Part shown: piece after piece, positions 54,978 through 57,446 of the stretch
How positions within the stretch are numbered: the stretch's first letter is position 1
How the letters are laid out: each line of letters starts with the position of its first letter
DNA from: an uncultured Bacilli bacterium
GTDB lineage: Bacteria; Bacillota_I; Bacilli_A; RF39; UBA660
Length of the DNA: 64,000 bases
Direction of reading: 5' to 3'
Assembly (NCBI GenBank): GCA_934096645.1
Contig: CAKOMK010000005.1
Span: forward strand, 40,870-104,869
The notes under the pieces: generated by a model
The model's input: only the letters and a program-made list of their open reading frames with translations
Database searches by the model: none
Told to the model about the DNA's origin: nothing
Position numbers and translations under genes: made by a program

Positions 54978-57446
54978 ATGATAAAAAAAATTAAACATAA
55001 ATATTATTTTTATAAAGACAAAATTTTTAGCAATATTTTTTGGAAAAATCTTTTTAAAAATTCATTGTGGGCTTTTTTTGGTGATACTGGTGCTTCTTTA
55101 ATTGGATTGATTGTAACATTTTTATTAATTAAATTTTTAGGTAGTTATGATTATGGAGTTTTAGTTCTAGCTCAAACATATATGTTAATTATTGATGTTG
55201 CATTGAATATTCAAGCTTGGAAAAGTACCATTCAGTATGGTCAAAAAGCTTTAATTGAGAATGATATAGAAAAATTAGCTGGCTACATAAAACTTGGAAC
55301 AATAATTGATTTATCTACTGCTTTTTTAGGTGGACTAGTTGCTTTGTTTTTAGCACCATTAGTTGGACATTTATTTTCTTGGTCACCTGAATTAATAATT
55401 TGTGCTCAGATATTTTCTGTAACTATATTTTCACATTTTTCTGGAACACCAACTGCAATGCTGAGAGTTATGGATAAGTTTAATTTGGTCGCGTTACAAA
55501 AGTTTATTACGGCATTTATTAAACTTGTATCAATTTTAGTTATGTTCTTACTTAATTCAAATATTTCACTGGTAAATGTTGTTATAATTTATTGTATTTC
55601 CGATATTATTGGAAATATTCTATTAGTGATATTTGCGTTTGTGACTTACAAAAAGATTTATTCTAAATATAAAATACTTAAGAGCAAATTTCCCGATGAT
55701 TCAAAAGATTTTGTTAGTTATACATTGTGGTGTACATTTGGATGTATTCTTGATATTCCTGTTAATTATTTTGATATGATATTTATATCTTTTTTGAGTA
55801 CTGATTTAGTATCAGTTTTTAAGGTTTTCAAGCAGTTTGGTTCGATTTTGAATAAAGTTTCATCTCCGTTGCAACAATCAATTTTACCTCAATTTTCTGA
55901 ACTGAATGCAAAAAATGAAAATAGAAGAGCTTTAAAAATTTTCGTTAAGATAAAAAATACTATGTTAAAGTTTACTGTACCAGTTGCATTATTAATTGGT
56001 ATTACATCTCCTTTGTGGTTGAATATTTTTTATGGAGAGATGTATTCTGATAAGTGGTATATTTTATTAATATATTTGCTTATTAATGCTATTTCTTTGT
56101 CTTATACGACTCTTCATCCTTTTTATCAATCTATGAATAGGGTAAAAAATGAAACTATAATTGTTGCTATATCAAATGTAATATATATGTTAGTATCCTA
56201 TTTATTAGTTAGAAGAATAGACTTGTTTGCTATTTTGATAGCTTTAGTAATACAAAACTTTTTAATAATATATTATAAAATTATTGATATCAAAAGAATA
56301 TTGAAAGAGAGTGATAATATGAATGATAAAATCTATATTGTGATAGGAGAAGAATTTTATAATCCATTAGGATTAATTAGAAGTTTGGGTGAAAAGAATA
56401 TAAGACCCATTGCTATTATAAAAAGAGGAGACTTTGCATTTGCATCTAAAAGTAAATATATATCAAAATTACATCTTGTTGATTCTTTTGATGAGGCTTT
56501 AGATTTATTAATTAAAGAATATGGTAATTTTGGTGATGTTAAACCTTTTGTTTTTACGTGTGATGATCAAATGACGAGTATATTAGATAATAATTATGAT
56601 ATTTTAAAAGATAAATTTATTTTCTTTAATGCTCATGAACAAGGCAGAGTTACAAAATATATGAATAAAAATGAGATAAATTTATTAGCTAAAAAGTGTG
56701 GTATCAATATTGCTAAAAGTTGGGTAATTAGAGATAAGAAAATTCCTAAAGATGTTAAATATCCAGTTTTAACTAAAGCAATTATTTCTACTAAAGATCA
56801 TTGGAAAGCTGATTCATATGTTTGTGAGAACGAAAAGGAATTGAAAAAAGCTTTAAGTAATATAAAATCAAAAGAAATTCTATTACAAGAATATATTGAT
56901 AAAAAGAATGAACTTTGTTATGATGGATTTTCGGTGAATCACGGAAAAAATGTTGTGTTTACAATATCATCTGATTATTTATATGTTAAAAAAGGTGCAT
57001 ATAGTAATTATATGAAGGTTGTTCCTCCATTTCATCCTGAACTTGAATCAAAATTATCAAAAATGTTTGAAATGATAGGATTTGATGGTATTTTTTCTGT
57101 TGAATTTCTAGTTGACAAGAATGATAATTATTATTTTTTAGAAATTAATTTTAGAAATTCAACATGGAGTTGGGCATCTACTAAAGCTGGTATGAATTTA
57201 CCTTATCTTTGGTCTGAATGTATGTTAGATAATAAAAAAACTAAAAATTGTTTTAAAAAATTTGAAGGTTTTAGAGCAATTGTTGAATTTGTTGATTTTC
57301 AAGACAGAGTAAAAACTAAAGAAGTAAGTTTATTTAAATGGCTAAAAGAATTATTTACTGCAAAAGTATGGTATTTTTGGGATAGAAAGGATCCTAATCC
57401 AATATTTTTTAAGTTTTATCATAAAATAACTAAAAAAAGGTATTAA
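54978..57446 (+). CDS. Fusion protein: Wzx-type polysaccharide flippase domain plus C-terminal ATP-grasp domain
   Basis: N-terminal 12-14 TM polysaccharide-biosynthesis domain. The C-terminal ~370 aa has an ATP-grasp-like pattern ('LLQEYIDKKNELCYDGF', 'VEFLVDKNDNYYFLEINFR'). No stop codon separates them. An internal RBS plus ATG at 56319 could also express the ATP-grasp part alone. Confidence 0.55.
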   Translation: MIKKIKHKYYFYKDKIFSNIFWKNLFKNSLWAFFGDTGASLIGLIVTFLLIKFLGSYDYGVLVLAQTYMLIIDVALNIQAWKSTIQYGQKALIENDIEKLAGYIKLGTIIDLSTAFLGGLVALFLAPLVGHLFSWSPELIICAQIFSVTIFSHFSGTPTAMLRVMDKFNLVALQKFITAFIKLVSILVMFLLNSNISLVNVVIIYCISDIIGNILLVIFAFVTYKKIYSKYKILKSKFPDDSKDFVSYTLWCTFGCILDIPVNYFDMIFISFLSTDLVSVFKVFKQFGSILNKVSSPLQQSILPQFSELNAKNENRRALKIFVKIKNTMLKFTVPVALLIGITSPLWLNIFYGEMYSDKWYILLIYLLINAISLSYTTLHPFYQSMNRVKNETIIVAISNVIYMLVSYLLVRRIDLFAILIALVIQNFLIIYYKIIDIKRILKESDNMNDKIYIVIGEEFYNPLGLIRSLGEKNIRPIAIIKRGDFAFASKSKYISKLHLVDSFDEALDLLIKEYGNFGDVKPFVFTCDDQMTSILDNNYDILKDKFIFFNAHEQGRVTKYMNKNEINLLAKKCGINIAKSWVIRDKKIPKDVKYPVLTKAIISTKDHWKADSYVCENEKELKKALSNIKSKEILLQEYIDKKNELCYDGFSVNHGKNVVFTISSDYLYVKKGAYSNYMKVVPPFHPELESKLSKMFEMIGFDGIFSVEFLVDKNDNYYFLEINFRNSTWSWASTKAGMNLPYLWSECMLDNKKTKNCFKKFEGFRAIVEFVDFQDRVKTKEVSLFKWLKELFTAKVWYFWDRKDPNPIFFKFYHKITKKRY

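Follow-up and report, generated by a model that had tools for sequence, protein, structure and literature searches.

A flippase-ligase fusion in a glycopolymer locus of gut Bacilli, and the genetic tie between its ATP-grasp ligase and a BCCT-family importer

Why would a bacterium make a polysaccharide flippase and an ATP-grasp ligase as a single protein, and what would such a ligase attach? The question is raised by one gene in a stretch of 64,000 nucleotides from an uncultured Bacilli bacterium (contig CAKOMK010000005.1 of assembly GCA_934096645.1, positions 40,870 to 104,869), which we call the window. A sequence-only reading of this DNA had proposed that a Wzx-type flippase is fused in frame to an ATP-grasp domain and that modification is thereby coupled to export. 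The fusion is real, conserved and recurrent; its architecture is new and its parts are known. The most informative feature lies outside the gene that reading was concerned with, in the coupling of the ligase to a BCCT importer and a PIG-L deacetylase. Covariation among loci ties the ligase genetically to the BCCT two genes downstream through residues 260 and 202 of its predicted active site. Our best explanation as a whole is a bifunctional membrane protein that would decorate a glycan unit with an imported compound and export the decorated unit, and we give it a probability of roughly 60%. The features on which the argument turns are these.

54978 to 57446, plus strand: the whole fusion gene, 822 amino acids (aa), Wzx-type flippase then ATP-grasp ligase, in an unbroken open reading frame (ORF)
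54978 to 56318, plus strand: flippase half, aa 1-447, 12 long helices, predicted PST/Wzx-like member of the MOP superfamily
56319 to 56333, plus strand: junction, Met448 and the 5-residue linker from the last helix (417-447) to the first ATP-grasp strand (453-458), placed by secondary structure and by a dip to 59 in the predicted local distance difference test (pLDDT) score of block 441-450
56319 to 57446, plus strand: ATP-grasp ligase domain, aa 448-822, of an uncharacterised family
56922 to 56924, plus strand: codon 649 (GAT, Asp; domain position 202), the second residue that covaries with BCCT
57096 to 57098, plus strand: codon 707 (TCT, Ser; domain position 260), two residues ahead of the Mg ligand E709, which tracks BCCT
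57141 to 57155, plus strand: catalytic motif E722-I-N724-F-R726 (domain E275/N277/R279), a biotin-carboxylase-type Mg/acyl-phosphate site
57448 to 59034, plus strand: long PIG-L/LmbE-family de-N-acetylase, 528 aa, no signal peptide (PF02585, 7e-18, residues 12-167), 1 nucleotide (nt) past the stop of the fusion
59039 to 60541, plus strand: BCCT-family importer of the CaiT/DddT clade, 500 aa, last gene of the operon (PF02028, 1e-125)

The first step is to decide whether the fusion exists at all. Its ORF has a GAGGTG Shine-Dalgarno sequence before the start ATG, 1 nt past the stop of a Wzy-like gene. The window has a GC content of 25.5%, at which stop codons are frequent, so an ORF of 822 codons is not due to chance. 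The exact 822-aa protein is found on 49 contigs (NCBI, JGI, Logan and ENA), and its 90%-identity cluster has 41 members, of which 14 of the 15 listed are 822 aa long. The junction is therefore not an artefact of assembly or sequencing, the error that might have undone the sequence-only reading, and the two domains do share one frame with no stop between them. An AlphaFold2 model of the full-length protein has a pLDDT of 88.6. The linker of about 5 residues between helix 417-447 and the ligase strand at 453 would, in this model, hold the enzyme against the inner face of the membrane. We are close to certain that the in-frame fusion is real. It had also been suggested that an internal start at 56319 could yield the ligase alone; the ATG is there, and what was taken for its ribosome-binding site (AAAGAGAG) is a weak Shine-Dalgarno remnant only.

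The N-terminal half has the MOP fold with 12 transmembrane helices, and an alignment of about 430 aa with stand-alone proteins 452-455 aa long gives 50-55% identity. All four of its homologues that were scanned match PF01943 (best 1.2e-21), and fused homologues bear PF01943 and PF03023. The 12-helix flippase of the earlier reading thus holds up, although a Kyte-Doolittle hydropathy scan is too crude for counting helices. When the full-length model was compared with the PDB using Foldseek, the best 50 matches were all ATP-grasp proteins. The setting is that of a Wzx/Wzy-dependent pathway, with Bac_transf, two GT2, TagF-like, Wzy_C-like and LCP genes in the same operon region. Known flippases of the PST family (PF01943), such as WzxE and the Wzx O-unit flippases, stand alone at about 420-480 aa, whereas the window protein adds a C-terminal cytoplasmic enzyme domain of 375 aa. 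We are highly confident that this half is a Wzx/PST-type flippase, with translocation its predicted activity.

The C-terminal half is very probably an active ligase, judging from catalytic residues that are all in place. It has the three-lobed ATP-grasp fold, and K153, K163, E198, E275, N277 and R279 are invariant across 70 family members, in which Q190 and E262 are at least 90% conserved. Scanned alone, the domain scores above the Pfam cut-offs for RimK (23.4 bits against 21) and CPSase_L_D2 (23.2 against 19.8), so an ATP-grasp domain that had been put at about 370 aa, and is nearer 375, does not want for profile support. A profile of its family finds PurK in the PDB (2e-12). The L-amino-acid ligases (BL00235, BacD, RizA), PylC, PurK/PurD/PurT and biotin carboxylase likewise have the three-lobed fold and the E-x-N-x-R motif, but they are at most 18% identical to the window domain, are soluble and metabolic, and do not act on glycans. 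In general, an ATP-grasp enzyme activates its carboxylate by making an acyl phosphate. The family itself is large, with 6039 representatives of 50%-identity clusters at E<=1e-3 and 960 at E<=1e-30, and has no characterised member or close solved structure. Most of its members stand alone at 370-390 aa, and stand-alone forms are up to 70% identical to the window domain.

How the two halves came together can be read from their relatives. Met448 aligns exactly with Met-1 of stand-alone ligases (P0052, P0047), and locus L016 has the same gene order unfused, with the wzx stop, a ribosome-binding site and an ATG. It follows that the window gene came about when the wzx stop codon was lost, which leaves the ATG at 56319 as a fossil start codon. 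The fusion is unusual, as had been supposed, since the ligase family is overwhelmingly stand-alone and fused forms are a minority. A search for homologous fusions did find them, conserved at 38-43% identity. In the Wzx-ligase proteins P0002-P0005 the flippase halves are about 50% identical to the window's and the ligase halves only 27-33%; P0244 is a more distant Wzx-like-ligase fusion. Wzx-ligase fusions thus occur in two ligase subfamilies plus P0244, and Wzy-ligase fusions in two subfamilies as well (P0006, P0014-16, P0174, P0179), the ligase being fused to Wzy about as often as to Wzx. We infer from this repeated fusion to Wzx and Wzy membrane proteins that the ligase works at the membrane and that its target there is the lipid-linked repeat unit. 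Its other partners are GINT1_N, GNAT and further ATP-grasps in tandem double or triple form.

Some related architectures deserve a place here as observations. Wzy-Wzx fusions of 751-880 aa (P0008, P0009, P0010, P0012) have a multi-pass polymerase-like domain followed by a flippase 52-55% identical to the window's. Taken together, the three kinds of fusion (Wzx-ligase, Wzy-ligase and Wzy-Wzx) are Rosetta-stone support for the idea, long suspected, that Wzx and Wzy physically associate. Proteins of 1241-1357 aa (P0167-P0172, P0180, P0181) carry two or three tandem ATP-grasp copies, and many others of about 800-880 aa carry two copies of this ATP-grasp domain; such proteins might build short peptide-like side chains.

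What the ligase uses as a donor is best approached through alleles of the same gene. Among alleles at least 98% identical to the window gene, our within-species set, codon 707 takes three forms: TCT (Ser) in the window, L001-4 and L076-81; GAT (Asp) in L066-70 and L074-75; and GAA (Glu) in L071-73. Every Ser allele, 11 of 11 counting 10 loci and the window, goes with an intact 500-aa BCCT. All seven Asp loci (7/7) have a BCCT gene with a 1-nt deletion at about codon 7 and an internal deletion of about 925 base pairs. Both evaluable Glu loci (2/2) have a different 1-nt deletion, at about codon 23, in a BCCT gene that is otherwise full-length. The 822-aa fusion ORF is intact throughout the set except in L066, where E458 has become a stop, and PIG-L is intact in most of these loci. 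A first view of L066 had suggested joint decay of ligase, PIG-L and BCCT; we rejected this, as wider sampling gave loss of BCCT with the ligase kept.

The Asp and Glu replacements need 2 and 3 nucleotide changes, and each comes with its own importer lesion. The Glu707 allele lies on a Ser-type background, having V199L, F254L and I452M in common with P0021, and it also carries D649E at domain position 202. With D649E and S707E together it recreates the E202/E260 signature of homologues that have no importer. We regard these two independent acidic replacements as strong genetic evidence that donor specificity is set by residue 260 and that a ligase of the Ser form needs the cargo of the BCCT. 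It can be noted separately that five of the six ligase-half substitutions in the Glu707 allele (P0028, L071-L073) fall within 110 residues (598-707) of the central lobe: L598I, D649E, F697I, M699I and S707E. This cluster could be a short interspecies recombination tract or a concerted adaptive change.

The same association is found between phyla. A BCCT gene adjoins the ligase in 17 of 52 reference-genome loci, in Bacillota and in Bacteroidota (Prevotella and other Bacteroidales included). The arrangement occurs with the ligase fused to Wzx (the window), fused to Wzy (L005) or standing alone (L010, L012). Recruitment of a BCCT has involved two different lineages: the Bacilli have one that resembles CaiT/DddT, the Bacteroidales and Lachnospiraceae one that resembles BetP. 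Within the clade at least 37% identical to the window domain, and in counts not phylogenetically corrected, Ser or Cys at position 260 occurs 20 times with a BCCT and 2 times without, and Glu or Asp 0 times with and 16 times without, in two phyla. The two states interleave across taxa. Since position 260 shares a strand with the Mg ligand E262 and comes two residues ahead of it, its side chain is expected to point into the active site. A like pattern is seen at position 202, where 83% of BCCT-linked ligases have Asp versus 14% of unlinked ones, with Glu or Asn in its place. That the ligase depends on a substrate imported by the BCCT is, in our opinion, probable.

The importer in turn limits what the substrate could be. 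Its nearest solved relatives are DddT (3e-85) and CaiT (1.5e-77), with BetP and BetT more distant. It scores 369 bits against TIGR00842, slightly under the cut-off of 407, and 374.8 bits against its best-scoring family, the CaiT equivalog NF002887, which falls short of the cut-off of 541. On sequence it is a CaiT/DddT-like protein and not CaiT. Carriers of the CaiT/DddT type move zwitterions with an onium group and a carboxylate, and known BCCT-family substrates are quaternary or sulfonium compounds that have no free amine. Choline-specific members, we take it, have Asp at the position of BetP-G153; Gly is kept there in all ligase-linked BCCTs. In one Prevotella/Bacteroidales locus (L033, 6239-12036) and others like it (L034, L035, L040), two paralogous ATP-grasp genes flank the BCCT and a GINT1_N-like gene follows. 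GINT1_N is itself fused to the ligase in P0209, P0216 and P0273 and is present in 14 of 45 long loci.

A possible acceptor is suggested by the gene between ligase and importer. The PIG-L family de-N-acetylates glycosides of N-acetylglucosamine (GlcNAc); the window protein has the metal-binding motif PHQDDE at residues 16-21 and weak matches to BshB. PIG-L is next to the ligase, or no more than a few kilobases (kb) away, in most Bacillota loci, regardless of the membrane partner in the ligase fusion. A DegT aminotransferase takes its place in a Prevotella locus. In the route to mycothiol and bacillithiol a GlcNAc glycoside is de-N-acetylated and the amine is then acylated using ATP. An LmbE/PIG-L deacetylase (MshB or BshB) acts first and an ATP-dependent ligase then acts on the freed glucosamine amine, which is the two-step logic proposed for the window. 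The differences are that the ligases MshC and BshC are not ATP-grasp enzymes and that the products are soluble thiols, not wall polymers. The window PIG-L is about twice the usual length, and its extra C-terminal region of about 300 aa (58100-59031) has no family match, a homologue having only a weak match to DUF7402. A deletion of exactly this C-terminal region is seen in L066 and L068, both of which are BCCT-dead.

We can now state the mechanism that we favor. The ligase would sit on the cytoplasmic face of the membrane and decorate the undecaprenyl-diphosphate-linked repeat unit before it is flipped. The fusion's N-terminal half would then flip the decorated unit, Wzy would polymerise it and LCP would attach the product to the wall. 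In the Ser260 form the donor would be a compound imported by the CaiT/DddT-like BCCT, with onium carboxylates the likeliest class (glycine betaine, carnitine, gamma-butyrobetaine or a molecule like dimethylsulfoniopropionate, for example). Cytoplasmic PIG-L would remove an N-acetyl group and expose a hexosamine amine on the lipid-linked unit; the ligase would activate the imported compound as an acyl phosphate and transfer it to that amine as an amide. The Asp260 and Glu260 alleles would use an endogenous donor, probably an amino acid held to the acidic side chain by its free ammonium group, and this would make the importer dispensable. Given the cargo class of the BCCT, carboxylate activation by ATP-grasp enzymes and the activity of the PIG-L family, the amide is the most economical model. 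A betaine-type acyl donor amide-linked to an amine exposed by PIG-L is nonetheless the weakest step, and we propose it tentatively, as a possibility with the odds somewhat against it.

Several results weigh against this explanation. The flippase half has no Pfam match of its own, PF01943 included, even at E<=1. Among the alleles no flippase-half substitutions track the switch between Ser and the acidic residues, which leaves gating by the flippase unsupported. L066 has a nonsense codon in the ligase and an intact flippase half, so the two functions are separable. The within-species pattern amounts to two independent evolutionary events only, and the Ser260 rule fails in more distant clades, where L045-L056 have Ser without a BCCT. 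We looked for an aromatic cage specific to BCCT-linked ligases and rejected it, since W283, W298 and W341 are conserved in both classes. The idea that PIG-L or DegT always accompanies the ligase was rejected as well, as this is true of 12 of 45 long loci only, and L010 and L014 have ligase and BCCT without PIG-L. These last two results mean that the acceptor may not be a sugar amine, or may depend on the lineage. Both the acyl donor and the acceptor are deduced solely from neighbouring genes and the general ATP-grasp mechanism.

The alternative that survives best changes only the bond. It keeps the fusion and the dependence on the importer and has the carboxylate ester-linked to a sugar or glycerol hydroxyl, an analogue of the D-alanyl ester, with PIG-L serving an unrelated step. 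ATP-grasp enzymes can form esters, the D-Ala-D-lactate ligases being among the structural neighbours of the domain, and many loci with ligase and BCCT lack both PIG-L and DegT. The placement of PIG-L next to or within a few kb of the ligase in Bacillota loci with any membrane partner speaks for the amide instead, as does the truncation of PIG-L in two BCCT-dead strains. We consider an ester unlikely, though it deserves to be taken seriously.

A second alternative reverses the chemistry. Cj1438 of Campylobacter jejuni is a GT2 glycosyltransferase with a C-terminal TupA-like ATP-grasp domain, Cj1438C, which amidates glucuronate with serinol phosphate or ethanolamine phosphate (PMC11800379). As in the window, an ATP-grasp domain is fused to a glycan-assembly protein, and a growing polymer is modified in the cytoplasm at the expense of ATP before the next assembly step (PMC11800379). 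Cj1438C is also the only biochemically characterised capsule-assembly ATP-grasp found in the literature, so the window ligase might likewise activate a carboxylate of the glycan, a uronic acid, and couple an amine to it. The two systems differ in that the partner of Cj1438C is a soluble glycosyltransferase in a capsule pathway of the ABC-transporter type, the sugar's own carboxylate is activated, and there is no importer; the partner in the window is a Wzx-type membrane protein. Among Pfam hits at E<=0.1 the window domain has no match to the TupA-like ATP-grasp model, which sets it apart from Cj1438C without a direct sequence comparison. No UDP-sugar dehydrogenase gene for a uronic acid was seen among the Pfam-scanned ORFs of the locus, and coupling to the importer would go unexplained, BCCT substrates having no free amine. 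We judge this alternative improbable.

Slightly less probable again is a role away from the glycopolymer, in which the ligase would turn the imported compound into a soluble cytoplasmic conjugate, for instance an osmolyte or metabolite, and would only be tethered to the membrane near the transporter. This has the merit of leaning on the coupling to BCCT, the best-supported link, and not on a glycan-side substrate that is deduced. The ligase, however, has been fused repeatedly to Wzx and Wzy and never to a BCCT, it is found inside Wzx/Wzy loci in two phyla, and its other partners (GINT1_N, GNAT and further ATP-grasps) are also in glycan loci.

The pneumococcus suggests yet another reading. In Streptococcus pneumoniae LicB imports choline, LicA, LicC and LicD place the decoration on the lipid-linked teichoic-acid unit, and TacF, which refuses undecorated units, flips the product ahead of a Wzy-like polymerisation (PMC13385700). 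This is the closest analogue of our preferred mechanism at the level of the system, having the same layout of import, decoration and flipping, an onium compound, decoration on the cytoplasmic face and a MOP flippase (PMC13385700). It differs in using phosphotransfer from CDP-choline and not an ATP-grasp enzyme, in importing with LicB and not a BCCT, and in keeping flippase and decorating enzyme as separate proteins. With TacF as precedent, the claim that modification is coupled to export is plausible; what the fusions themselves establish is tethering to the Wzx/Wzy machinery and not a gate on export specifically. One could go further and argue that the window BCCT imports choline for a Lic-type phosphocholine decoration, with the ligase adding an amino acid independently, phosphocholine-decorated teichoic acids being well known in Gram-positives. 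We find this very hard to credit: there are no LicA, LicC or LicD homologues among the Pfam-scanned ORFs of the locus, the BCCT falls in the CaiT/DddT clade and not the BetT clade, and the covariation of residue 260 with BCCT would be left without explanation. One last reading takes the fusion for an assembly artefact or a pseudogene in decay, and the stop at codon 458 of L066 might be cited for it; this is already refuted by the identical ORF on 49 contigs from four sources, the conservation of fusions at 38-43% identity and the intact catalytic residues.

If we return to a bifunctional protein that decorates with an imported compound and exports the product, it is the combination that is new. 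Our full-text searches of the literature found no description of an ATP-grasp fused to Wzx or Wzy, none of a glycan locus that pairs an ATP-grasp with a BCCT, and nothing relevant on betaine-substituted glycans or on clusters of PIG-L with ATP-grasp. Wzx flippases and ATP-grasp ligases are themselves familiar; the Wzx/Wzy-ligase fusion and the ATP-grasp/BCCT pairing are not, and ligase, PIG-L and BCCT make up a three-gene decoration module. The link to the importer is an unusually clean natural experiment, as one active-site codon that differs between strains predicts whether the importer is intact. The broadest form of the idea is that, in two phyla of gut bacteria, this uncharacterised ligase family covalently adds to wall or capsular glycans an onium carboxylate that is imported and probably comes from the diet, with one or two residues (260 and 202) toggling between imported and endogenous donors as a polymorphism among strains of a single species. 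We offer this as a speculation that is doubtful as it stands. If it were true, with dietary betaine or carnitine as the donor, host diet would be tied to surface chemistry and charge in common gut Firmicutes and Prevotella, and to their susceptibility to phages and recognition by the immune system. It would also be a new kind of surface-charge and antigen variation, similar in effect to choline decoration or D-alanylation and unrelated in chemistry.

The rest of the locus gives the setting.

47359 to 53766, plus strand: LCP ligase, Bac_transf priming transferase, DUF3048 lipoprotein, two GT2 glycosyltransferases and a TagF-like glycerophosphotransferase, by Pfam
53768 to 54976, plus strand: Wzy-like repeat-unit polymerase, a multi-pass membrane protein (PF04932 Wzy_C, 3.6e-7, just under threshold)
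60529 to 60562, either strand: bidirectional terminator-like hairpin just past BCCT, closing the operon against the convergent rmlB
60562 to 63873, minus strand: dTDP-rhamnose genes by Pfam, rmlB, fused rmlC-rmlD and rmlA, the last running off the window end

On the plus strand the order is LCP ligase, Bac_transf, DUF3048 lipoprotein, two GT2, TagF-like, Wzy-like, fusion, PIG-L and BCCT, followed by the convergent rmlB, rmlC-rmlD and rmlA. From its gene content this is a Wzx/Wzy-dependent, wall-anchored (LCP) glycopolymer operon of a Gram-positive bacterium, with genes for rhamnose and glycerol phosphate. The gaps between genes from Wzy through BCCT are 1-4 nt and a single terminator lies past BCCT, which supports the genes from Wzy to BCCT as an operon; there is no terminator-like site between 50707 and 60529. 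A promoter scan gave 110 hits versus 125 expected. The locus was recovered from human-gut metagenomes, and its nearest relatives, from the guts of humans and animals, are labelled as uncultured Bacilli or Erysipelotrichaceae.

A few smaller points concern the neighbours. The DUF3048 lipoprotein gene (49629-50675, plus strand) has the priming transferase on one side and the glycosyltransferases on the other, and a terminator-like hairpin comes after it at 50670-50707. Directly 5' of the glycopolymer locus is a PD-(D/E)XK transposase-like gene (PF12784; 46379-47260, plus strand), which strain variant L004 lacks and which may mark a mobile or variable boundary of the locus. Another assembly-protein fusion in gut Bacilli joins Wzy_C to GT4 in proteins of 827-830 aa and adjoins the pair of ligase and BCCT (L012, 11759-14251; L013, 11760-14243). 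In the rhamnose genes, rmlC (dTDP-4-dehydrorhamnose 3,5-epimerase) and rmlD (reductase) form one 482-aa protein (61560-63008, minus strand). The rmlA gene of the window (63013-64000, minus strand) is cut off; in full-length copies of the locus it encodes 366 aa (L001, 18036-19136) with an N-terminal HTH_3/HTH_19/HTH_31 DNA-binding domain, and a glucose-1-phosphate thymidylyltransferase fused to a regulator-type domain is unusual.

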